A DNA stretch of 36,137 nt from an uncultured Bacteroidales bacterium (GTDB taxonomy: Bacteria > Bacteroidota > Bacteroidia > Bacteroidales > ML635J-15). The stretch spans positions 1-36,137 of the forward strand of contig CAZOHR010000003.1 in NCBI GenBank assembly GCA_964579045.1, written 5' to 3'. The notes beneath the pieces were generated by a model, which was not told the origin of the DNA, did not search any database, and saw only the letters and a list, made by a program, of their open reading frames with translations. How positions within the stretch are numbered: the first letter of the stretch is position 1; every line of letters starts with the position of its first letter. The position numbers were made by a program, and so were the translations under genes. Positions 6,738 through 32,763 of the stretch are shown piece by piece.

Positions 6738-6917
6738 ATGACAGAAAATTCCAAATTGTATAGAGCTGACGAAGTGGCGGAGATTTTAAACTTCAAGCCG
6801 AAAACAATAAAAAAATGGATAAAAGAGGGATTTGTTCAAGCGGTAAAAATTGGTAGCAGTTGGAGAATCGAACAAAGCGAAGTAGACAGATTAAAGAGAG
6901 GGAGTGTACGCAGATGA
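6738..6917 (+). CDS. HTH_17 / excisionase-MerR-like DNA-binding protein
   Basis: LYRADEVAEILNFKPKTIKKWIKEGFVQAVKIGSSWRI is a typical helix-turn-helix_17 signature. RBS AAGAGGTG lies upstream of ATG 6738. Confidence 0.7.
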   Translation: MTENSKLYRADEVAEILNFKPKTIKKWIKEGFVQAVKIGSSWRIEQSEVDRLKRGSVRR

Positions 6918-9199
6918 ATTTTGACAATATACCGCAGGAACTAAAAGACCTCAAACAATGGGTATGCCATACACCCGATAAGTTACCTATGAACGCAAAA
7001 ACAGGGAAAAATGCACAGAGTAATAACCCCGCTACTTGGAGTGATTATGAAACCGCTATCAAAGGTATGGAAAAGTTCAAATTTGAGGGTATTGGGTTTA
7101 TGTTTGCAAATGGGTATTTTGGAGTGGACTTAGACCATTGCATTAACAATACGGATTTCATCGAGGAATTTGTAGAAACGCTTGATTCGTATGCTGAAAT
7201 TAGCAAGTCGGGCGAGGGAATACATATTATATGCAAAGGAATGTTACCACAAGGGAAAAGGCGAAAAGATAATGTGGAAATGTATGACTCGGGTAGATAT
7301 TTTTGTATGACGGGAAATAATTGGGGAATTGCAGAGATTAAAGATTGTACCGAAACTATAAAAATACTCCACAATAAATATCTTTCGGAACCAAAACCGA
7401 TGATGATGGGTAGGAACGTACAAAAAATTTATATGAGTGATGATGATGTTATTTCAAAAGCTCGACTATCTAAAAACGGAATGTATTTCGAGGCACTTTA
7501 TAGAGGTAATTGGCAAGGAGCATATACCAGTCAATCAGAGGCGGATTTAGCGTTCTGCAATATGCTTGCATTTTGGACACAAAAGGAATCGGAACAGATT
7601 GATAGAATCTTTCGTTCAAGCGGATTGTTTCGTACTAAATGGGATTCATTGAGAAGTGGAGTCACTTATGGGAATTCCACAATATCGAAAGCAGTTCAAG
7701 GTTGCACGGAAGTTTATGGGGTAGAGATGCAAGGAAAAGAACAAGATTTGGTGGTAGGTGTGTTTGGAAAGAAAACCAAGGTGCCGAAGAAAAACTACGA
7801 GCCAACAGATACAGGAAACGCAAATAGATTGTCCGACAAATACAGAGGGCAATTAAAATTCTCGTATCAGAATAAAATGTGGTATTATTGGACAGGCAAG
7901 GTTTGGCAGGAAGATTTAACTGGCGAATCAAAGAAGATGGCTGACGAAGTTATAATTGATATGAAAAAAGATGCTTTTGATATTGAGGACGAAGAAAAAC
8001 GAGAAATGGCACTAAAATGGGTGGCAAGGACAAGCAATAGCAAGAGTAAAGAAAATATGTTAAAAGAATCGCAACATTTGACTGATATTCCTGTTTTGAG
8101 TAGTGAATTCGATACATACCACGATTATTTGAATTGTCAAAACGGAGTTGTGAATTTGCGTAATGGAGAACTTATTCCGCACAATTCAGTATATATGCAA
8201 AGTAAAATTAGCCTTGCTGAATACTCCAAAGATAAAGAACCTACACAATGGTTGAAGTTTCTTGATGATGTAACGGGCGGAGATAAGGAATTGCAACTAT
8301 TCTTACAAAAAGCGGTTGGGTATAGCTTGACTGGTTCCACAAAGGAGCAATGCGTATTCTTCTTATATGGAAGTGGTAATAACGGAAAATCTACTTTCTT
8401 AGATATTATAACCGATTTAGCAGGAAGTTATTCCTGCAACGTACAACCCGAAACTGTAATGGTAAAAAATCCAATGCAAAGTGGTGGAGCAAATACTGAT
8501 ATTGCAAGATTAAGAGGTTCACGATTTGTTACTACGATAGAACCGAACGAGAGCGTAAAGATAAACGAGGGGTTACTGAAACAACTAACGGGCGGAGATA
8601 AAGTTACTGCTCGATTCCTCTATGGCAGAGAATTTGAATTTATGCCTGAGTTTAAGTTGTGGCTTGGAACGAATCACAAACCAATTATTCGTGGAACTGA
8701 TATAGGAATTTGGCGGAGGATTCGTATGATTCCGTTTACAGTAAATATTCCAAAGGATAAAGTGGACAAAAATTTGAAATTCAAGTTACGAAAAGAATTA
8801 CCATACATATTAGATTGGGCGGTGCAAGGTTGTTTATTATGGCAAAAAGAGGGTTTGGAATTGCCCGCAAGCGTACAAAAAGCCACAGAGGAATATAAGA
8901 GTGAAATGGATTTACTCGGTAGATTTTGCGACGATTGTGTGGAATTGAATTATTTAAGTAGAGAAAAAGCATCGGATTTGTACGAAGTATATATTGGGTG
9001 GGCAAAAGAAAATAACGAATATGAAATGAGTTCCACAAAGTTTTCAAAAGAACTTGCTAAAAAATACCCCGAAAAAGTTAGAATGGCTGATGGAGTATTT
9101 TTCAAGAATACTAAAATAAGTACACTTGGAATGAGATTTAAGACAAAAGACCACTATCACGAGTATAAACAGTATAAAGCTCGACATAATGGAGATTGA
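6914..9199 (+). CDS. bifunctional primase-polymerase / D5-type (SF3) primase-helicase
   Basis: The N-terminal prim-pol shows FGVDLDHC, GEGIHIICKG and YFCMTGN. A PriCT-like segment is SQSEADLAFCNMLAFWT. The C-terminal P-loop is FFLYGSGNNGKSTF. ATG 6914 overlaps the upstream stop (ATGA). Confidence 0.9.
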   Translation: MNFDNIPQELKDLKQWVCHTPDKLPMNAKTGKNAQSNNPATWSDYETAIKGMEKFKFEGIGFMFANGYFGVDLDHCINNTDFIEEFVETLDSYAEISKSGEGIHIICKGMLPQGKRRKDNVEMYDSGRYFCMTGNNWGIAEIKDCTETIKILHNKYLSEPKPMMMGRNVQKIYMSDDDVISKARLSKNGMYFEALYRGNWQGAYTSQSEADLAFCNMLAFWTQKESEQIDRIFRSSGLFRTKWDSLRSGVTYGNSTISKAVQGCTEVYGVEMQGKEQDLVVGVFGKKTKVPKKNYEPTDTGNANRLSDKYRGQLKFSYQNKMWYYWTGKVWQEDLTGESKKMADEVIIDMKKDAFDIEDEEKREMALKWVARTSNSKSKENMLKESQHLTDIPVLSSEFDTYHDYLNCQNGVVNLRNGELIPHNSVYMQSKISLAEYSKDKEPTQWLKFLDDVTGGDKELQLFLQKAVGYSLTGSTKEQCVFFLYGSGNNGKSTFLDIITDLAGSYSCNVQPETVMVKNPMQSGGANTDIARLRGSRFVTTIEPNESVKINEGLLKQLTGGDKVTARFLYGREFEFMPEFKLWLGTNHKPIIRGTDIGIWRRIRMIPFTVNIPKDKVDKNLKFKLRKELPYILDWAVQGCLLWQKEGLELPASVQKATEEYKSEMDLLGRFCDDCVELNYLSREKASDLYEVYIGWAKENNEYEMSSTKFSKELAKKYPEKVRMADGVFFKNTKISTLGMRFKTKDHYHEYKQYKARHNGD

Positions 9200-9207
9200 T
9201 ATAATAG

Positions 9208-9358
9208 TAAAGAAAAATAAAAAAATATAAAAGATAGTGTAGGGTGTAGGGTTAGTGTATAGAAAATCGTAAACTTTTCTATAAAAAATATTTTTTATTC
9301 TTTGCAGACTTTTCTATATTTTATTACACTAACTATACACTATTACACTAAATATAAA
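9208..9358. repeat. TACAC/GTGTA iteron-bearing AT-rich element, copy B (inverted relative to 26601-26740)
   Basis: Positions 9325-9358 are the exact reverse complement of 26601-26634 (34 nt). Positions 9208-9221 are the reverse complement of 26727-26740 (14 nt). Internal arms are 9235-9262 (GTGTA x3) and 9324-9350 (TACAC x3), with a hairpin TATAGAAAA/TTTTCTATA at 9258-9283. Confidence 0.85.
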
Positions 9359-9360
9359 AT

Positions 9361-9415
9361 AATATTAAAAAATATTAAAAAAAGTATTGACAAAGGGTTT
9401 TTAATTTGATACAAT
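9361..9415 (+). promoter_or_regulatory. strong sigma-A type promoter, copy 2 (same UP tract and -35 as 1292-1346)
   Basis: TTGACA 9387-9392, a 17-nt spacer, then TGa TACAAT (-10 at 9410-9415). The 33-nt identity with copy 1 holds here too. The leader shares AAAAATTCAAA with copy 1. Confidence 0.8.
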
Positions 9416-14440: not shown

Positions 14441-14475
14441 AGTCAAGCGTTTAAAATACGCTTGACTTTTTGATT
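14441..14475 (+). terminator. intrinsic terminator
   Basis: The perfect 10-bp stem AGTCAAGCGT / ACGCTTGACT has a 7-nt loop and is followed by TTTTTGATTTTT. Confidence 0.85.
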
Positions 14476-14490
14476 TTTCAAGACTATAAT
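14462..14490 (+). promoter_or_regulatory. consensus sigma-A promoter embedded in terminator 3' arm
   Basis: TTGACT (14462-14467), exactly 17 nt, then TATAAT (14485-14490). Confidence 0.7.
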
Positions 14491-17961: not shown

Positions 17962-18507
17962 TTGTATAATTCCGCACTTGATACACACAATAAGAGAGAT
18001 GGTTCCGTTAACAATTATCATAACGGAACCGCTTTCGTACATAACATTTTAAACGGAACAGATGAACGTTTTTTGTACGCAGATGCCATTTATTCAGAGA
18101 TTTCGTGGCAAAAAGGGTTCGAAAAGTTTATGAAAAGAGCAAATGTAGAGGATTTCCGCACTTATAAAGAGTATATTGATTCAATTATTGCAGTTGTAAA
18201 ATGGCTTGGAGTTCCTACAATTCTGATATGTGGAAAGACAGGAATCACAGGTTATGATTGGAAACACGAAACATATTTTAGTGCCGTGAAATGCAAGGCA
18301 GTTGCTTATGGATTCAACTGTAAAAAAGTGAAATTTGATACTACTGATTTGTATATGGACTATCTTGCGGAAACGAAAGAAACTCTACTTGATTTTTGTT
18401 GCGGATATGGGAATATATTGAGGTTTTGCGATTTACACGACACTAAATTCATTTGTTCGGATATAAACGAGGATTGCATAAATTATATAAAAGGAGTTGA
18501 GGCTTAA
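17962..18507 (+). CDS. methyltransferase-like protein with permuted (beta-class) order and degenerate motifs
   Basis: TTG 17962 has AGGAG 8 nt upstream. A motif IV-like DAIY is at nt 18082-18093 (FLYADAIYSE). A motif I-like DFCCGYG is at nt 18391-18411, near the C-terminus. Confidence 0.5.
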   Translation: MYNSALDTHNKRDGSVNNYHNGTAFVHNILNGTDERFLYADAIYSEISWQKGFEKFMKRANVEDFRTYKEYIDSIIAVVKWLGVPTILICGKTGITGYDWKHETYFSAVKCKAVAYGFNCKKVKFDTTDLYMDYLAETKETLLDFCCGYGNILRFCDLHDTKFICSDINEDCINYIKGVEA

Positions 18508-18860
18508 TGGCAAGACCAAAGATAATTATTGACGAAAATCAATTTGAGAATTTATGCAACATTCATTGTACGTTAGACGAGATTGCAGGGTTCTTTAATT
18601 GTTCCGCCGATACGATTGAAAACTGGTGTAAAAGGGAATACGGAGAGCGTTTTTCGGACGTCTATAAAAAGAAGTCCGCCAAAGGTAAAATATCATTGAG
18701 AAGAACACAATTTAAAATGGCTGAAAAGAATGTAGCTATGGCAATATGGTTAGGCAAACAATGGCTCGGACAAAAGGAGAATGACGAGAATAACGGAAAC
18801 AATTTCGGAATGTTGCCCGAATTATTACAATACTTCAAAGATAATGCGAGGAAGAAATAA
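18507..18860 (+). CDS. terS: terminase small subunit
   Basis: HTH-like N-terminus is CTLDEIAGFFNCSADTIENWCKR, followed by LRRTQFKMAEKNVAMAIWLGKQWLGQKE. It lies directly upstream of TerL with an ATGA/TAATG overlap. Confidence 0.8.
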   Translation: MARPKIIIDENQFENLCNIHCTLDEIAGFFNCSADTIENWCKREYGERFSDVYKKKSAKGKISLRRTQFKMAEKNVAMAIWLGKQWLGQKENDENNGNNFGMLPELLQYFKDNARKK

Positions 18861-24877: not shown

Positions 24878-26092
24878 ATGTCAGTAAACATTATAAACAG
24901 AGCAGGAGCAGAGGCACTTATACCCGAGGAAGTGACAAATAACATTATTCAAGGAGTGGTAAAAGAATCGGCTACACTTAGCTTATTTAGAAAATTACCA
25001 AATATGGCATCAAATGTTCAGTCAATGCCAATCCTTGATATGTTACCAATGGCTTATTGGGTAAATGGAGATACAGGCAAAAAAGCTACAACAAAAATGG
25101 CGTGGGATAAAAAGAAAATCTATGCAGAAGAAATTGCTGTTATCGTTCCAATACCCGAATCAGTATTGAACGATGCAGGAGATAGCGGTTATGATATTTG
25201 GGGTGAAGTGCAACCAAGAATCATAGAGGCATTTGGTAGAGTAATTGATGATGCGGTTTTATTTGATGTTAACAAACCTGCAAGTTGGAGAGATGGTATT
25301 GTAACTACTGCTATGAAAGCTGATAGCTATGTAGATGCTACCGCTGACTTCTATCAAGATGTTTTTGATGAACACGGGGTAATCGGCAAGGTTGAGGAAA
25401 GCGGATTTTTACCAAATGGTGTAATTTCTGCGGTTACTATGCGTGGCAAAATCCGTGGTATGGTTGATGGAAACAAAAGACCATTGTTCACAGATAATAA
25501 ATCACTTGATGGTATGCCAATATTTTTCCTTGAAAATGGTTCGTGGGTTGATTCACAAGCAAGCCTTATCGTTGGCGATATGGCACAAGCAGTTTACTCA
25601 ATCCGTCAAGACATCACTTATAAATTGCTAACAGAGGGTGTTATTCAAGATGCAGATGGCACAATTATCTACAATCTTGCACAACAGGATATGGTAGCGT
25701 TGAGAGTGGTAATGCGTTTAGGTTGGGAAATTCCAAATCCTATAAATGCGTTAAAACCAAATCACGGAGAAAGATGCCCATTTGCAGTTTATGTTCCATC
25801 GACAGGCGAACAACCTCTTGCAAATGAAATCACAATTACATCAGTAGCAGGAGCTACAAGTGGTAAGACAAAAATTACTGTTGTTGGTGCAACAGAGGGA
25901 TTGACATATAAATATAAGACTGACACCACAGTTGCACTTCCACTTCTTAATGCTCCAACAGATACTTATACTGCTTGGAATGGTATAGCGGATATTACTG
26001 CAACAACAGGTAACGAAATCGTTATTATTCAAATTGATGCTTATGGCAAGGTTGAAAATGCAGGTAAAACAACTGTAACTTCAAAAGCTTAG
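24878..26092 (+). CDS. major capsid protein (HK97-fold) with C-terminal Ig-like decoration domain
   Basis: EALIPEEVTNNIIQGV...LPMAYWVNGDTG is typical of Phage_capsid family proteins. The C-terminal ITITSVAGATSGKTKITVVGA...YKYKT looks like a Big_2-type Ig domain. Confidence 0.85.
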   Translation: MSVNIINRAGAEALIPEEVTNNIIQGVVKESATLSLFRKLPNMASNVQSMPILDMLPMAYWVNGDTGKKATTKMAWDKKKIYAEEIAVIVPIPESVLNDAGDSGYDIWGEVQPRIIEAFGRVIDDAVLFDVNKPASWRDGIVTTAMKADSYVDATADFYQDVFDEHGVIGKVEESGFLPNGVISAVTMRGKIRGMVDGNKRPLFTDNKSLDGMPIFFLENGSWVDSQASLIVGDMAQAVYSIRQDITYKLLTEGVIQDADGTIIYNLAQQDMVALRVVMRLGWEIPNPINALKPNHGERCPFAVYVPSTGEQPLANEITITSVAGATSGKTKITVVGATEGLTYKYKTDTTVALPLLNAPTDTYTAWNGIADITATTGNEIVIIQIDAYGKVENAGKTTVTSKA

Positions 26093-26122
26093 TTGATTGA
26101 TGAATAAAAGGGGGTAAGACAA

Positions 26123-26473
26123 ATGTTTGTAGATTCAATTTATTATAAAACGAATTACAAAGGTACGCTTATCCCCGATGATTCGTTTGCAGAATTCGAA
26201 GAACGAGCAAGCGAATTCATTGTGGGATATGTAATGCAACAGATTGATGTTGACAATCCACACGAAGAAGTTAAAAAATGCACTTGCAGGTTGGCTGAAA
26301 TTCTTTATAATGACGTTAACCCAAAAATTGCATCAGAAACAGTAGGACCACACTCAACACAATATGCACAAAATATGCAAAATGAAAAACTAAAATCGCT
26401 CGAATCTCGAATGGTTTTTCAAATTAGATTGTATTTAGGAAAAACGGGATTGTTGAGCTTGGTAGTAAATTGA
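26123..26473 (+). CDS. head-tail connector/adaptor (gp6/gp15-like)
   Basis: Position and size fit. The N-terminus YKGTLIPDDSFAEFEERASEFI is typical of Phage_connect_1-type proteins. Confidence 0.65.
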   Translation: MFVDSIYYKTNYKGTLIPDDSFAEFEERASEFIVGYVMQQIDVDNPHEEVKKCTCRLAEILYNDVNPKIASETVGPHSTQYAQNMQNEKLKSLESRMVFQIRLYLGKTGLLSLVVN

Positions 26474-26476
26474 GAA

Positions 26477-26527
26477 GATTATGGTAAACCAATTTTAAAA
26501 ATAAGGCGATTATGGTAAACCAATTTT
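26477..26527. repeat. 20-bp direct repeat GATTATGGTAAACCAATTTT x2, 31-bp phase
   Basis: Exact copies are at 26477-26496 and 26508-26527. Each contains a TGGT-AA-ACCA dyad. Confidence 0.85.
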
Positions 26528-26600
26528 TCTGAAACGGAGTAAAAAACAGTTTTTCGATTTTCAAAATTCCTTTACTTTTTTTTACTCTATTATATATTTA

Positions 26601-26740
26601 TTTATATTTAGTGTAATAGTGTATAGTTAGTGTATATAATATAGTAAAGTCCCTATAAGAAAAAAAATAATTTTATAGAGAAAGTTATGGAAATCGCTAC
26701 ACTAACTATACACTCCTACACTACTCTTTATTTTTCTTTA
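26601..26740. repeat. TACAC/GTGTA iteron-bearing AT-rich element, copy C (inverted relative to 9208-9358)
   Basis: See copy B. The match is 34 nt and 14 nt perfect at the two ends. The interior is roughly three-quarters identical by hand alignment, with one ~10-nt indel. Confidence 0.85.
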
Positions 26741-26753
26741 TATTTTTTAATAT

Positions 26754-26798
26754 TGCATAAATATACAGAAAATAGGTCAATTTGTGCATAAATATACA
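26754..26798 (+). promoter_or_regulatory. TGCATAAATATACA x2 (31-bp phase), candidate late promoter/operator for tail genes
   Basis: Exact 14-mers are at 26754-26767 and 26785-26798. The second reads as an extended -10-like TGcATAAAT about 25 nt before the GTG 26821 start. An AAATAGG box is at 26770-26776, as at 1264-1270. Confidence 0.5.
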
Positions 26799-26820
26799 TA
26801 ATGGTAAAGGGGTGGCGAAT

Positions 26821-27162
26821 GTGGTAACGATTTATAATGGATATAAAGATTCAGAAACAGGAGAGTTGAAATTTAGAAGAATTGTTCTCGACGAAATGCT
26901 GTTCACGAAAAGCAAAGAATATATTACTAAAAAATTTGGTAATAACGCAATTGAAAAAGCGTTGTTATATATCAAGTATTCAGAGGACCTCGAAATAAAG
27001 GTTGATGTGGACAGGTTCGTGTATGGAGAATGTAGTTTTGAATTGACTGCTGAAAACATAAATGAGTTTATTGCTAATTACGAGCAGTTCAAAGTTTCTA
27101 TGGTTGATGAACATTGTTATGGGAGCAAGAAGTTGTGGAATGTAACCATTGGTGGGAAGTGA
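26821..27162 (+). CDS. head-tail joining protein candidate (hypothetical)
   Basis: GTG 26821 has AAAGGGGTGG 6-8 nt upstream. The call is based on position only. Confidence 0.55.
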   Translation: MVTIYNGYKDSETGELKFRRIVLDEMLFTKSKEYITKKFGNNAIEKALLYIKYSEDLEIKVDVDRFVYGECSFELTAENINEFIANYEQFKVSMVDEHCYGSKKLWNVTIGGK

Positions 27163-27166
27163 TAAA

Positions 27167-27490
27167 ATGGATACGAAAGTAGAAGTTAAAATTTTTCCGC
27201 AAACTTATGAAATTGTGGCTATGGCACAAAAACAATGGGATATGGAATGTATGAAACAACTTGAACCATATATGCAGTTAGACACACACACTATGATTGG
27301 TTCAATGATACTGCATAGTAAAATGGGAAGTGGCGAAATCAAAGTGGTTACACCTTATGCTAAAAGAAGATTGTTAGAGCCATCAAAAATTGGTAGCAGG
27401 ACTGGAACTAAGCGGGGTTATAATTATATCAATCGAATGAAAGCTGATAAAATTGAATACCTAAAATCTTTTTTGAAAGGAATTTTGTGA
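27167..27490 (+). CDS. minor capsid / head-tail joining protein candidate
   Basis: ATG 27167 has GGTGGGAAG upstream. The position is that of the 'minor capsid protein' families in Firmicute siphoviruses. Confidence 0.6.
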   Translation: MDTKVEVKIFPQTYEIVAMAQKQWDMECMKQLEPYMQLDTHTMIGSMILHSKMGSGEIKVVTPYAKRRLLEPSKIGSRTGTKRGYNYINRMKADKIEYLKSFLKGIL

Positions 27491-29382: not shown

Positions 29383-32300
29383 ATGGCAGATGGTGAAATC
29401 AAAATAGATACAAAGCTCGACGATACCAAATTTAAAAAAGGCCTTAGCGATATGGGAGAATTTGCAAAGACTGCATTTTTAGGAATTACCGCTACGATAG
29501 GAATTGCGACGGGTATGGCGGCGAAATTTGGTATGGAGTTCGAAAGTAGTTTAGCAAAAACCAAAACAATGTTCGGTAGTGTGGCAGTAGATATGAAAAA
29601 TTTAGAAAAGAAAACACTTGAATTATCTACTGCAACAGGAGTGGCGGCGAGCGAAATCGCAGAATCAATGTATGATGCACTTTCGTCGGGTATTCCAGTA
29701 ACAGAGGATATGGGAGATGCAATTTCATATATGGACAAATCGGCAAGACTTGCGAAAGCAGGATTTACTGATATAAATACTGCGGTTATGTCTACTGCAA
29801 AAGTGCTTAATGCTTATAAAATGGACGTATCAGAAACAGATAGAGTTCATCGAATAATGATGGCAACTCAAAATAAAGGTATTACCACAGTTGATGAATT
29901 AGGAAAAACGCTTGCAGGAGTAACTCCAACTGCGTCGGCTATGAATGTATCGTTCGAGCAAGTAGGTGCGAGTTTAGCAACTATGACATCGCAAGGTACC
30001 CCTACATCGCAAGCGATAACTCAACTTAATGGTTTATTCGCTGATTTAGGTAAAAAAGGCACTATATCACAGAAAGCTCTTGCAGAAGCAGTAAAAGGAA
30101 CTAAATACGCAGGGAAATCATTTCAAGATATGGCAAAAGACGGAGTTCCACTTAACACTATGCTTGATTTATTAAATACTTATGCGAAGAAAAACAAATT
30201 ATCTTTAATTGATATGTTTGGAAGTATTGAATCGGGTAAGGCGGCACTTGCATTGAGTGGACAAAACTCCGCCTCATTTACTGCAAACTTAAAGGAAATG
30301 TCCACACAAGCGGATTTGGTAGGAGATGCAGTTAAAATAATCGACGATACTGTTGGAGAAAAATTCAAAAAAGCTATGAATGAGGGTAAAAACGAGATGA
30401 TAAAGCTCTACAATGATGGGTTCAAGCCTATTCTTGCAGAGGCGATTCCTTTATTGGTAACAGGAATCAAGTTTTTATTCAATAATTTTCAGATGATTGT
30501 TGCAATAACCGCAGGGTTCGGAATAGTTTTAGGTGGTTTATGGTTAGTAATGGAGGGTGGAGCAATAATCACAATGGTAACAGAGGCTATGGTTGCCCTT
30601 AATATTGCGATGGCCGCCAATCCCGTAGGAATAATAATAATTGGAATTACCGCCTTAATTGCAGTTATGGCAATTTTATCAATAGGGAAAAACAAAGAGG
30701 CAGAAGAATCAGCAAAATTAGTAAAGCAGGTAGATGCCGAAAATAAAGCTTGGAATGATTTGAAAGCAACAAAAGAACAGCAGATGGGCGCTGCTTTGGC
30801 AGAGCTTAATTATAGTGAAAAATTGTGGGCAGAGTTACAACGTTTGACAGATGCAAAAGGTATGATAAATGATAGCGATAAAGCGAGAGTTCAATTCATT
30901 TTGAATGAACTCAACTCCGCTATGGGTACACAAATGCAACTCGTGGACAACGAGGTAAAAGGGTACGAAAAAGTAGGGAAATCCATAGACGCCTTAATCG
31001 AGCAAAAAAGAGCAAAAATCATAATGGATAGCCAAGAGGTATTATACAAAGAGGCACTTATAAAGTATGAGGAGAAACAAATAGAGCAGGCCAAACTTAA
31101 AATTGCCCTTGCACAAAAAGAGAAAGAGTATAACGAAGTGGCAAAATGGGATATTGTTGGTGCAAATAGAATAGCCAAAGAATTCGACGACCTTGCGAAA
31201 AAGTATTCTGAAAACGAGGTAGTGTTAAAACAATATTACAAGCATATAGGCACATACGAGGAAAATTCAAAAGCAATGACCGAAAAGCGGTATGGTGACA
31301 TAAAGAAAATTATCGACAATAACGCAAACGCATTTATTACCGCAGAAGATGTAAGGAAACAAGCGTTAGGTAAACAAAAAGAAACTCTGCTGGAACAAGT
31401 TGTGGTTATGAAAACTACGGCTGAATTAGTAAAAAAGGCTTGGACTGATGGAACCGCTGGTGTAACAGAGCAGATGGTAAAAGACGCAGAGGCAAAAGCA
31501 AAAGAAGCTGAGGCGGAATATGCAAAAGTAGGGGCTCACATAATTAGTGGTATGGTTATGGGTATCGAAAACGGAAAAGGTAAAGTAACAGGGGCGACTG
31601 GAAATGTTGTGTACGATGCACTTATTGCGGCGAAAAATGCGGGTGTAATAAAATCACCATCACGAAAAATGCGTGACGAGGTTGGTTTGATGCTATCGAG
31701 AGGTATTGCGGTAGGTGTTACGCAAGGAAGTGGAGAAGTATCAAAAGCATTTACTAAAATGCTCACAGATTTGGACTTGCAGAGAGATACGGGGGTTATA
31801 AATGAGCAGGAATATTATGATAAACTAACTGTGCTTAGAAACAAATATTTAAAGCAAGGAACATCGGAGTGGTGGGAATATACAAAACAAGTTTTAAACT
31901 ACGAGGATAAATTGGCGGAAGATGAAACGAAACTTTTAAAAGAAAAATTGGATAAACAAAAAGAAACTATCACTTCGAGTTTTAGGGAAATCATAAGTGA
32001 AATTGATACTATGATGAACGATGTGGAACAAAAGCAAAATGAATTCGCTGATAAACTTAAAAATTTCGTAGAACCATTTTCCGAAAAGACTATCACACTA
32101 AAAAATGTAGGAAAGAATTTCAATCTTGATAGAGGTTCTAAACAGGGCGAAGATTGGGTAATAAATGAAATCGACTTAACCGATTTGAAAAGGAAAAATA
32201 AAGAGTTGGAAAGTTATTCCAATTTACTCGACAAAGTAAAAGCAAGAGGAAATGTTCCACAAAAATTCTTGAATGATTTGCAACAAATGTCGATTGTTGA

Positions 32301-32763
32301 TGGTTCTAAATTCGCAAATGCGTTACTTGGTGTTTCTGATACTGAATTTGAGAGCTATATGAATGATTGGAGTAAATTACAAGAGAATATATTAAAGATG
32401 TCGAAAGACCAATACAGCGAAGAATTTTCGCTTGTAGGACAACAAGCAAAAGCTAAACTTATGGCACAATTTGATTTAGTACCCGATGAATTCAAAGAAA
32501 ATGGAAAACTGTCGGCTACAAAATTCGAAGAAGGATTTATGACAGAATTTAATAATGTGTGGAACAGAGTAAAAACAAGTATTCAAGTTAAAACGAACTC
32601 TATTGGAAGTGGTGAAATCAAAAATCCTATTGGAAAACTTGCGCCGAATAGTAATACTGAAACGAGCATTTATAATGTTACTGCAAAAACCGAAACTTTA
32701 TCTTCACAAATTTCACAAATTGAGGCTGATAAAATATTTAAAAAAATGATTGGGGTGAATTGA
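29383..32763 (+). CDS. tail tape measure protein (TP901-type core, central TM-rich segment)
   Basis: Length is 1126 aa. The N-terminal TMP core is ELSTATGVAASEIAESMYDALSSGI, followed by a hydrophobic block IVAITAGFGIVLGGLWLV...IIIIGITALIAVMAIL and a long coiled coil. Confidence 0.92.
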   Translation: MADGEIKIDTKLDDTKFKKGLSDMGEFAKTAFLGITATIGIATGMAAKFGMEFESSLAKTKTMFGSVAVDMKNLEKKTLELSTATGVAASEIAESMYDALSSGIPVTEDMGDAISYMDKSARLAKAGFTDINTAVMSTAKVLNAYKMDVSETDRVHRIMMATQNKGITTVDELGKTLAGVTPTASAMNVSFEQVGASLATMTSQGTPTSQAITQLNGLFADLGKKGTISQKALAEAVKGTKYAGKSFQDMAKDGVPLNTMLDLLNTYAKKNKLSLIDMFGSIESGKAALALSGQNSASFTANLKEMSTQADLVGDAVKIIDDTVGEKFKKAMNEGKNEMIKLYNDGFKPILAEAIPLLVTGIKFLFNNFQMIVAITAGFGIVLGGLWLVMEGGAIITMVTEAMVALNIAMAANPVGIIIIGITALIAVMAILSIGKNKEAEESAKLVKQVDAENKAWNDLKATKEQQMGAALAELNYSEKLWAELQRLTDAKGMINDSDKARVQFILNELNSAMGTQMQLVDNEVKGYEKVGKSIDALIEQKRAKIIMDSQEVLYKEALIKYEEKQIEQAKLKIALAQKEKEYNEVAKWDIVGANRIAKEFDDLAKKYSENEVVLKQYYKHIGTYEENSKAMTEKRYGDIKKIIDNNANAFITAEDVRKQALGKQKETLLEQVVVMKTTAELVKKAWTDGTAGVTEQMVKDAEAKAKEAEAEYAKVGAHIISGMVMGIENGKGKVTGATGNVVYDALIAAKNAGVIKSPSRKMRDEVGLMLSRGIAVGVTQGSGEVSKAFTKMLTDLDLQRDTGVINEQEYYDKLTVLRNKYLKQGTSEWWEYTKQVLNYEDKLAEDETKLLKEKLDKQKETITSSFREIISEIDTMMNDVEQKQNEFADKLKNFVEPFSEKTITLKNVGKNFNLDRGSKQGEDWVINEIDLTDLKRKNKELESYSNLLDKVKARGNVPQKFLNDLQQMSIVDGSKFANALLGVSDTEFESYMNDWSKLQENILKMSKDQYSEEFSLVGQQAKAKLMAQFDLVPDEFKENGKLSATKFEEGFMTEFNNVWNRVKTSIQVKTNSIGSGEIKNPIGKLAPNSNTETSIYNVTAKTETLSSQISQIEADKIFKKMIGVN

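Follow-up and report, generated by a model that had tools for sequence, protein, structure and literature searches.

A non-coding island at the head-tail junction of a PriRep-type phage is probably built around a second copy of its replication origin

The structural operon of the phage described here is interrupted by a non-coding island whose core is probably a duplicate of the replication origin of that phage. From comparisons across the window (the whole 36,137-nt stretch of DNA that was analysed) and with related phages, we read this island most readily as a replication element that relatives share, and not as a gene switch or a small RNA. The element at its core, termed copy B, is homologous to an origin-like element, termed copy A, that follows the gene of a PriRep-type initiator.

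Results

Gene borders of the island

The island spans positions 26474-26820 (347 nt) between the head-tail adaptor gene (26123-26473, forward strand; phrog_541, E=7e-18) and the next structural gene (26821-27162, forward strand; phrog_3366), which has a GTG start at 26821 with the ribosome-binding site AAAGGGG upstream. Only open reading frames of 22-46 aa were found between the adaptor stop at 26473 and this start, confirming the original prediction of a 347-nt non-coding island. Small frames of 34 aa on the forward strand and 46 aa on the reverse strand were rejected as genes, because they overlapped the repeats and because no gene was called in the gap of either relative described below.

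Head-to-tail genes are usually contiguous, as the original prediction had assumed, and of the 121 loci examined that carry a related capsid gene, just 18 had a gap of at least 130 nt within 2.4 kb 3' of it. Representatives inspected from each group of gaps contained small ORFs, a reverse-strand ORF or an unrelated GC-rich repeat. Among the inspected loci, a true non-coding gap after the adaptor gene was found in one other phage lineage only, and this lineage belongs to the same clade as the present phage. Homology searches returned no DNA match of the island among 50,697 GenBank phages, no relatives of the adaptor protein in IMG/VR by word patterns, only the self match for the phrog_3366 protein in a set of 5.8 billion proteins, and no match among GenBank phages for the phrog_3366 protein of a relative.

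The PriRep initiator and origin copy A

The window encodes a PriRep-type primase-helicase initiator (6860-9199, forward strand; 779 aa, or 761 aa in the public gene call that begins 18 codons downstream) with PrimPol/HBD, D5_N, SF3 helicase and Pox_D5 C-terminal domains, as indicated by Pfam matches to NrS1-1_pol HBD, D5_N, DUF5906 and Pox_D5. Residues 23-738 matched PDB 7OLA (E=3e-40), which is SaPI5 PriRep5 (PMC9371898), and the Pfam domains together with this match characterize the protein as a self-loading SF3 (primase-)helicase initiator with a C-terminal DNA-binding domain.

Origins of SaPIs possess 6-12 iterons directly 3' of rep, arranged around an AT-rich centre with at least two opposed iterons per side, and these iterons are bound by the C-terminal winged helix of the initiator (PMC9371898; bioRxiv 10.64898/2026.10.17.759575). 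Copy A (9235-9350) begins 36 nt past the PriRep stop codon and consists of a left arm TAGTGTAGGGTGTAGGGTTAGTGTA (9235-9259), an AT-rich spacer of 65 nt (9260-9324) and a right arm TACACTAACTATACACTATTACACTA (9325-9350). Judged by its layout and position, copy A is the predicted canonical origin of the phage's PriRep initiator. Directly 3' of it lies a strong sigma-70-type promoter, TTGACA-17-TACAAT (9387-9415, forward strand), which heads the AAA_5/DUF7192 block and is kept in both syntenic relatives.

Copy B forms the core of the island

Copy B (26609-26723) is composed of a left iteron arm, TAGTGTAATAGTGTATAGTTAGTGTA, with three GTGTA cores (26609-26634, forward strand), an AT-rich spacer of 63 nt that is presumed to be a DNA-unwinding element (26635-26697), and a right iteron arm, TACACTAACTATACACTCCTACACTA, with three inverted cores (26698-26723, reverse strand). 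The two arms form a 26-nt inverted repeat in which TAGTGTA occurs three times per arm, and the spacer carries TATAG.AAAG / TATGGAAAT motifs, which are also found repeatedly in the origin spacers of PriRep-type relatives. A segment comprising copy B (26577-26762) is homologous to 9195-9383 on the opposite strand, with 79% identity over 186 nt and an exact block of 34 nt at 26601-26634, and no further copies of this element were found in the 4.1-Mb assembly.

In both copies each side of the element carries three GTGTA cores, with the two sides inverted relative to one another, and the centre is AT-rich, with an A+T content of 77% in B (74 nt) and 83% in A (65 nt) when measured between the iteron words delimited by a repeat detector, spans that are slightly longer than the 63-nt core spacer of B. 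Copy B does not adjoin the 3' end of the initiator gene and is located 17.4 kb away among structural genes, which makes it a displaced duplicate and not a canonical member of the PriRep/SaPI-type origins. Alignment of A with B showed that all GTGTA-core columns were identical (30/30), compared with 41 of 156 other columns that differed (Fisher p = 2.7e-4). Complementarity between the arms falls (24/26, 21/26, and 21/26 with gaps) while the iteron cores remain intact, a pattern that favours protein-binding repeats over a hairpin. We consider it likely that copy B is a PriRep-binding origin-like element. The original prediction had mentioned it in passing as an iteron copy; the repeat is real, yet it was given too little weight, as it appears to represent a conserved and full second origin copy.

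Conservation and co-variation in related phages

Both elements were found at the two orthologous loci in two syntenic relatives, ERZ27252104 k141_35116 (PriRep 67% identical) and JGI 3300077325/6 (PriRep 68% and capsid protein 64% identical). The flanking genes of these relatives have strongly diverged, with 39% identity for the adaptor and phrog_3366 proteins that could not be aligned by BLASTP, the gene 3' of the relative's island being likewise assigned to phrog_3366. Beyond the origin core the island layout differs in each of the three phages, leaving the origin core as the sole common denominator. Comparison with relatives had been put forward in the original prediction as a way of judging the island, and its outcome was divided, as the island is conserved in two relatives by virtue of its origin core and the 20-mer repeats are absent there.

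The iterons co-vary between the two loci of each phage. The JGI phage contains exactly four copies of ATGTATACAT, two in A and two in B, with each pair exactly 63 nt apart; neither of the other two phages contains ATGTATACAT, and both have TAGTGTA at each of their loci. Extra iterons were also present, with four phased at 11 bp in one relative and two in another. For two members of this trio, copies A and B of a given phage are more alike than either is to its orthologue, and the spacers are 70% alike in inverted orientation in the present phage and 73% alike in direct orientation in the JGI phage. This within-phage likeness together with the differing orientation indicates that part of the co-variation stems, irrespective of function, from gene conversion or from repeated rounds of duplication.

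Outside these three phages, the layout of copy A, with phage-specific iterons 3' of a homologous primase-helicase gene, was identified in about 13 IMG/VR phages, as well as in Lactobacillus phage A2 (in which a GenBank rep_origin is annotated there), Listeria phage PSA and one Clostridia MAG. No second iteron cluster was found in A2, in PSA or in the eight IMG/VR genomes whose origin could be identified, and as these 10 relatives are viable with a single origin, a second copy is not generally required. An iteron element 3' of the PriRep gene was not found in six complete genomes that encode the nearest PriReps in IMG/VR (56-59% identical), nor in P0006 and P0008 (PriRep 62-63%); having no identifiable element at all, these are uninformative on origin copy number. 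A scan of IMG/VR with the iteron pattern gave 20 matches, in which the true relatives were two records of one phage only, and applying this pattern to 185,579 species genomes gave 30 matches that were all due to chance except the Clostridia MAG, where a D5-like helicase gene is followed by GTGTAGTT iterons. Searching for the element in 57 genomes of the source MAG's family yielded AT-rich noise only, and the bin assignment is doubtful.

Repeats flanking the origin core

The repeat positions claimed by the original prediction were all recovered. The 20-mer GATTATGGTAAACCAATTTT occurs exactly at 26477-26496 and 26508-26527, 31 bp apart, and no other copy with up to three mismatches was found in the window (0.01 expected by chance). 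Both 20-mers are held by a lineage-specific 31-bp tandem repeat (26467-26528, forward strand), whose units (26467-26496 and 26498-26527) are 87% identical, the 20-mer being the conserved part while the remaining bases vary. An 18-nt core of the 20-mer had four single matches in IMG/VR, which is about the chance estimate for an exact 18-mer. As such, the 20-mer pair is absent from the islands of the two relatives, where just a short core is common; TATGGAAAT is present in all three islands (P about 0.02, with post-hoc choice allowed for), and the 20-mers themselves bear the variant TATGGTAAA. The phased 20-mer operator had been presented as the headline feature of the island and, missing from both relatives, it does not constitute the island core.

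Following the 20-mers is an AT-rich inverted repeat (26537-26587; RNA fold -12.9 kcal/mol, z = -2.6), which had been described with 10-nt arms and is longer, having arms of 14 nt (26537-26550 and 26574-26587) that are 93% complementary and a loop of 23 nt. Its 3' arm lies at the margin of the stretch that matches origin A, and the repeat does not have the form of a standard terminator. On the other side of copy B, the TGCATAAATATACA pair (26754-26798, forward strand) consists of exact copies at 26754-26767 and 26785-26798, again 31 bp apart, and this region includes a 14-bp near-palindrome, ATTTGTGCATAAAT, at 26781-26794. The TGCATAAATATACA pair is not conserved in the islands of the two relatives, and with ATTTGTGCATAAAT it is a possible regulator site. 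The motif TGCATAAAT has six copies in the window compared with 1.06 expected, and these sites form three pairs, one 5' of the early promoter, one flanking the small terminase start and one in the island, so that one regulatory element, the TGCATAAAT pair, may still reside in the island. The 20-mer and TGCATAAATATACA pairs are lineage-specific flanks that are not explained by an origin role.

Discussion

Alternative explanations for the island

The original prediction favoured a regulatory hub, with a small RNA as the other possibility. In the former case, dimeric regulators bound to the 20-mers and/or the TGCATAAAT sites would divide head from tail expression, either by termination and re-initiation or by a roadblock. 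The 31-bp spacing of both direct-repeat pairs, the paired and enriched TGCATAAAT sites with the near-palindrome, the exactness of the 20-mer inside a repeat that otherwise varies, and the related 9-mer TATGGAAAT common to three islands are consistent with such a hub. We nevertheless consider it unlikely, as neither repeat pair is kept in the two relatives and the island possesses neither a terminator nor a strong promoter. No Rho-independent terminator (GC-containing stem, 3-8-nt loop, T-run) was detected in 26000-27300, and no promoter in the island was comparable to the three 11/12-consensus promoters of the phage, with the AT-rich hairpin at 26537-26587 and weak promoter-like hexamer pairs (9-10/12, at chance level) as the only candidate transcription signals. 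In the relatives an origin arm or extra iterons abut the ribosome-binding site of the gene that follows, so a promoter would not fit there, and a hub would also leave the conserved, co-varying origin core unexplained. A structured RNA, whether an sRNA, a processing site or an attenuator, in which the long hairpin functions in the transcript, would suit the location within a transcribed operon and the folding far above that of shuffled sequences (z = -4.65 for the whole island and -6.15 for the core), but strong folding is a trivial outcome of inverted iteron arms. An Rfam scan at a permissive E-value gave best values of 0.8-10, far below gathering scores and none in the island core. In copy A and in the relatives, the stretches between the cores have lost complementarity and acquired indels, with the cores themselves kept, and both orientations with respect to transcription occur (A against B in the present phage, and its B against that of the JGI phage). 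The small RNA suggestion thus found no support, and we regard a structured RNA as very unlikely.

Copy B could also represent a non-functional relic, in which a palindromic origin was copied to a module junction by illegitimate recombination and has since been neutral or selfish, kept A-like by gene conversion. The greater likeness of A and B within one phage than between orthologues and their differing orientation among lineages agree with this interpretation, as do the 34-nt exact block, which suggests recent conversion, and the viability of single-origin relatives. It appears quite unlikely, however, given that the same intergenic position is held in three lineages despite flanking proteins that are 39% identical or beyond BLASTP detection, and that phage genomes are compact, with non-coding post-adaptor gaps confined to this clade among the inspected loci of the 121. 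Iteron cores have moreover been strictly conserved amid diverged surroundings, and the relatives have acquired additional iterons. Extremely improbable is a role as a recombination substrate, whereby the inverted copies mediate inversion of the intervening 17-kb segment. The inverted orientation and the 34-nt exact identity in the present phage would permit this, but in the JGI relative, whose copies are in direct orientation, recombination would lead to loss of the segment and not to its inversion. The sites have no linked recombinase, and an inversion would leave the middle and late genes pointing opposite to the remaining genome.

Comparison with known replication systems

The alpha primase-helicase of satellite phage P4 recognises, through a C-terminal iteron-binding domain, identical iterons at ori and at crr, which is needed in cis. 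The P4 loci differ from those of the present phage in being 4.5 kb apart and flanking the alpha gene region, and crr is an incomplete origin copy that is not part of a structural operon. Phages A2 and PSA resemble the present phage in having a primase-helicase that is 44-50% identical and an element of iterons, AT-rich sequence and inverted iterons that extends from the 3' end of its gene, although they have a single iteron cluster compared with two in the present phage and its two relatives. The A2 rep_origin corresponds to 32208-32717 in AJ251789, and this origin was reportedly defined experimentally by Moscoso and Suarez (2000). Likeness to SaPI5 lies in the homologous initiator, matched over nearly its full length, in opposed iterons around an AT-rich centre, and in the position of copy A directly 3' of the initiator gene. 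The present element differs in that it belongs to a phage and not a satellite, has iterons of the GTGTA type, and has a second full copy 17 kb away in the structural operon; no report of a second origin copy for SaPIs was found in the SaPI literature examined.

A functional parallel is Bacillus phage SPP1, in which oriR breaks the late morphogenesis gene order, contains repeats and an unwinding element like those of oriL, and binds the initiator gp38 (PMC6316719); oriR has been proposed to stall forks and trigger a theta-to-sigma switch (PMC6316719; PMC3485210). Both phages have two similarly built elements, the second in a long intergenic region amid morphogenesis genes, and copy B likewise provides a distant second copy of the initiator repeats and unwinding element within an island that interrupts late gene order. 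The initiator here is an SF3 PriRep and not a gp38 homologue acting with a DnaB-type helicase and loader, so the resemblance to SPP1 is functional and does not imply membership. Additionally, oriL lies within gene 38 and has direct repeats, and oriR is located beside moron genes between the portal/gp7 and scaffold genes, not at an adaptor/head-closure junction. By analogy, copy B is best read as a second PriRep-bound origin comparable to oriR.

Possible function and significance of a second origin

If copy B is a PriRep-binding origin-like element, PriRep hexamers would also assemble there, and we give about even chances to its firing as an origin. Such firing could be late, as late-operon transcription must cross B. 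A role as a barrier or switch is less probable but conceivable by analogy with SPP1, and some other role is less probable still. As a barrier, B would be a tightly bound initiator complex hit by forks coming from A, and the collision may cause a switch from theta replication to concatemer synthesis, as proposed for SPP1 oriR. A and B are separated by about 17.4 kb, and as the genome measures at least 36 kb, B would lie roughly opposite A on the circular form. A bolder scenario, which we consider possible but not likely, is that this PriRep phage clade retains its complete second origin at the head-tail junction, about halfway round the circle from the first, in order to control replication in a programmed manner. 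Copy B would then serve either as an origin that fires late, once transcription of the late operon passes through it, or as an initiator-bound fork trap for the theta-to-concatemer transition. Concerted evolution with the DNA-binding domain of the initiator would keep both copies matched, and the flanking repeats (20-mers, extra phased iterons and TATGGAAAT motifs) would tune their function.

For annotation, the island illustrates that a marked non-coding interruption of a structural operon can represent a replication element and not a regulatory region or RNA gene, and PriRep-phage origins can be recognised by inverted iterons and an AT-rich spacer, about 50-80 nt long but exceeding this in a few relatives, directly 3' of the primase-helicase gene. 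SPP1 is essentially the only phage for which a second origin in the late region has been described, and the function of its oriR is still a model. The present clade would offer an independent and simpler system, with one self-loading initiator, whose structure is known in SaPI5, and two origin copies at fixed loci. Its three natural variants with co-varying iterons make second-origin firing, fork stalling, and coupling to late expression or packaging testable.

A non-coding island with a large inverted repeat

The adaptor gene (phrog_541; 26123-26473) and the next structural gene (phrog_3366; 26821-27162, GTG start) are separated by 347 nt in which the sole ORFs encode 22-46 aa, and this island has a G+C content of 23-26% compared to 36% window-wide. 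The repeats named in the original prediction were also recovered: both copies of the 20-mer GATTATGGTAAACCAATTTT (26477 and 26508) are exact, an AT-rich inverted repeat has 14-nt arms at 26537-26550 and 26574-26587, and the TGCATAAATATACA pair lies at 26754 and 26785, so that the observation as a whole is confirmed. GATTATGGTAAACCAATTTT is the conserved portion of a 31-bp tandem repeat and has no further copy in the window at up to 3 mismatches (0.01 copies expected). The most striking feature of the island had been given too little weight and is a 26-nt inverted repeat (26609-26634 and 26698-26723) with three TAGTGTA units per arm.

Comparison of the island with the entire 4.1-Mb assembly identified one match besides itself, where 26577-26762 aligned to 9195-9383 on the opposite strand with 79% identity, including a 34-nt exact block. 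The core elements of this match are referred to as copy A (9235-9350), which sits between a 779-aa ORF (6860-9199) and, at 9387, a strong promoter (TTGACA-17-TACAAT), and copy B (26609-26723) in the island. The six GTGTA cores are identical in A and B (30/30 columns) while the other columns differ at 41/156 (Fisher p = 2.7e-4).

The origin adjoining the initiator gene

The 779-aa protein contains NrS-1-type primase-polymerase, D5_N, DUF5906 (SF3 helicase) and Pox_D5 domains and matches PDB 7OLA (E=3e-40, residues 23-738), which is PriRep5 of SaPI5 (PMC9371898). Origins of self-loading helicase-initiators of this kind comprise 6-12 penta- or hexanucleotide iterons immediately 3' of the initiator gene; two or more of these, oppositely oriented, stand on either side of an AT-rich centre, and the initiator binds them through its C-terminal winged helix (PMC9371898; bioRxiv 10.64898/2026.10.17.759575). 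Copy A fits this published definition exactly: its iterons are 3+3 and inverted, its AT-rich spacer measures 65 nt, and it starts 36 nt past the stop codon of the PriRep gene. The same layout, built from other iteron sequences, was found 3' of the homologous gene in approximately 13 IMG/VR phages (iterons GACGGGTTT, GGGCACAAG, GTGCACAAG, GTGTGGTGA, CGACCCTGA and others), in Listeria phage PSA, and in Lactobacillus phage A2, where the GenBank rep_origin (32208-32717) is annotated precisely there. Given this definition and the shared layout, copy A is by every sequence criterion the predicted origin of the phage. In an uncultured Clostridia MAG (L224 1720-1930, CANQJY010000046.1; L-numbers denote sequences retrieved from relatives), the gene for a D5-like helicase with 26% identity to PriRep residues 466-732 is followed by three AACTACAC and three GTGTAGTT iterons around an AT-rich spacer of 52 nt, and further iterons lie outside these on either side. 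This element is an independent case of such an origin, and its iterons are similar.

Copy B possesses the full origin architecture in its arms, spacer length and AT-rich centre, and its spacer carries TATAG.AAAG and TATGGAAAT motifs that both recur in spacers of the origin family. Across this family (window 9260-9324 and 26635-26697; L100, L104, L109, L115 and others), the AT-rich spacers contain TTTCC(C)TATA / TATAGG(G)AAA-like motifs whatever the iteron sequence; in many cases two inverted motifs enclose TATATATA, and the motifs may mark a site of priming or melting.

Two copies are not the norm. In the eight IMG/VR genomes where a PriRep-adjacent origin was identifiable, and likewise in phages A2 and PSA, phage-specific iterons cluster at that origin alone. 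A generic detector of AT-rich spacers flanked by inverted iteron pairs found two sites, no more, in the window and a maximum of one in each of 14 other genomes. PriRep relatives at 56-63% identity are uninformative on copy number; no iteron element was found 3' of the gene for the closest IMG/VR PriReps (56-59% identical) or two others (62-63%), and this group must have its origins at another place or of another design. In these relatives (L089-L097, L285 3508-3670, L286 3490-3595) only a terminator and promoter follow the gene. The iteron element 3' of PriRep is present in more distant (41-50%) and in the closest (67-68%) relatives.

Syntenic relatives carry both elements

A survey of 121 loci with a related capsid protein identified 18 with a gap of 130 nt or more 3' of the capsid gene, and representatives of each gap group held small ORFs, an ORF on the reverse strand or an unrelated repeat of high G+C. 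Among the loci inspected, the sole other lineage with a true non-coding gap 3' of the adaptor was first seen as IMG/VR fragments of 13.7 kb and 17.2 kb, in which this gap is packed with GTGTAGGG iterons. In two distant capsid relatives (L050 5505-5659, L061 5428-5582), the adaptor region is followed by a structured, GC-rich insert of 155 nt, which includes inverted repeats (for example CCCGTTTTCACGGG) and is not related to the iteron island.

Exact-protein look-ups retrieved two longer syntenic phages, whose sequences provide the decisive evidence for what copy B is likely to be. The ENA phage (ERZ27252104 k141_35116; 30.4 kb) belongs to the same lineage as the IMG/VR fragments and the other derives from JGI samples 3300077324-6 (37 kb). 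Both keep the gene order DEAD helicase, HTH_17, PriRep, gap, AAA_5, DUF7192, terminase, portal, capsid, adaptor, gap and next gene, with PriRep identities to the window of 67% (ENA) and 68% (JGI), 64% for the capsid protein and 39% for the adaptor; the phrog_3366 proteins give no BLASTP alignment between phages yet have a common profile match. In both relatives an origin lies 3' of PriRep, followed by a TTGAC(A/T)-17-TACAAT promoter, and a second origin-like element occupies the gap 3' of the adaptor. The A-B distance is 17.4 kb in the window (9292 vs 26666), a 36.1-kb contig that is nearly the whole genome, spanning holin/lysin to a cut tail-fibre gene with ends that lack overlap, and 15.5 kb in the 37-kb JGI phage (L282 2097 vs 17624). 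These distances, relative to at least 36.1 kb and to 37 kb, would place the two copies roughly opposite one another on the circular form.

Iterons at the two loci also change together. The ENA phage has TAGTGTAGGG-type iterons at both loci, like the window, while in the JGI phage the spacer-proximal iteron is changed to the palindrome ATGTATACAT, a 10-mer with exactly four copies in the 31 kb read, two in A and two in B, each pair exactly 63 nt apart, and is not present in the window or ENA phage. The iteron sequence at one locus thus follows that at the other from lineage to lineage, the pattern that a single DNA-binding domain reading both would be expected to produce. Gene conversion between the copies, or repeated re-duplication, is also at work and contributes to this pattern, as the A and B spacers are 70% (window) and 73% (JGI) identical within one phage compared to only ~45-57% for orthologous copies between phages, and the relative orientation of A and B is inverted in the window and direct in the JGI phage. 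Such a process leaves unexplained why a ~115-nt non-coding element has stayed at this junction even as the proteins encoded on either side became nearly unrecognizable. The surroundings of this element vary: the ENA island has four extra iterons at 11-bp phasing 5' of a core that adjoins the ribosome-binding site, the JGI core lies 17 nt past the adaptor stop and is separated from the ribosome-binding site by an AT-rich stretch of 110 nt and a further two iterons, and the window island has the 20-mer pair and AT hairpin 5' of the core and the TGCATAAATATACA pair 3'. The origin core is the sole common denominator of the three islands.

Regulatory and RNA-based readings of the island

The island had been proposed to act as a hub separating head and tail expression or to encode a small RNA. 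It contains no terminator and no promoter comparable to those at 1318, 9387 and 14462 (14462-14490), the three near-consensus sigma-70 promoters of the window (11/12 matches), and read-through across B is the simplest account of tail gene transcription. An upstream AT-rich cassette is identical at the first two promoters (1292-1346, 9361-9415); copy B keeps part of this cassette, without the -35 or -10 hexamers. Shuffled sequences fold much less well than the island (z = -4.65; core z = -6.15), a trivial result of the island's inverted arms, and an Rfam scan returned nothing. The two arms are complementary at 24/26 positions in B, at 21/26 in A, where there is a gap, and at 21/26 in the ENA island, where there are four gap positions; all arm differences fall between GTGTA cores, and the element occurs in both orientations relative to transcription. 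Intact cores, decayed complementarity and use of both orientations fit repeated, putative protein-binding sites rather than a selected RNA or cruciform structure.

Conservation of the 20-mer pair did not hold, as it is missing from the ENA and JGI islands. The 9-mer TATGGAAAT, of which the 20-mer holds the variant TATGGTAAA, is common to all three islands, where the chance of composition-matched random islands sharing at least two 8-mers (equal to one shared 9-mer) is 0.02; TATGG[AT]AA, a motif picked after the fact, occurs six times in the three islands vs 0.29 expected. TGCATAAAT is enriched in the window (six exact copies vs 1.06 expected; 0/100 shuffles reach six), pairing at 1224/1249 (span 1224-1257) 5' of the early promoter, at 18475/18550 (span 18475-18558) around the small terminase gene start and at 26754/26785 (span 26754-26793) in the island, ahead of phrog_3366. 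The motif lacks conservation in the two relatives' islands and looks like a site of a regulator or packaging protein. These repeats may be regulator sites and leave room for a regulatory layer in the island, one that is lineage-specific and secondary to the origin core.

Host and possible function of the second element

The phage has strong Shine-Dalgarno sites, TTGACA/TATAAT promoters and a SleB-like hydrolase, which fit a Firmicute host, and PriRep relatives occur in Listeria and Lactobacillus phages. A Firmicute is the likely host and binning of the contig with a Bacteroidales MAG is probably wrong.

The SaPI/PriRep origin adjoins its initiator gene, a defining feature that copy B lacks, and on sequence grounds copy B is therefore best described as a displaced duplicate of an origin of this type. 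The closest functional precedent is oriR of phage SPP1, which is built like oriL, has nanomolar affinity for the initiator gp38 and breaks the conserved morphogenesis gene order; in the proposed model, oriR stalls the fork and so triggers the switch to concatemer synthesis (PMC6316719; PMC3485210). As the initiator families of SPP1 and this phage are unrelated, the likeness is one of analogy and not of membership. In the best-supported reading, PriRep would assemble at B as it would at A, and the complex at B would either fire as an origin or act as a bound obstacle.
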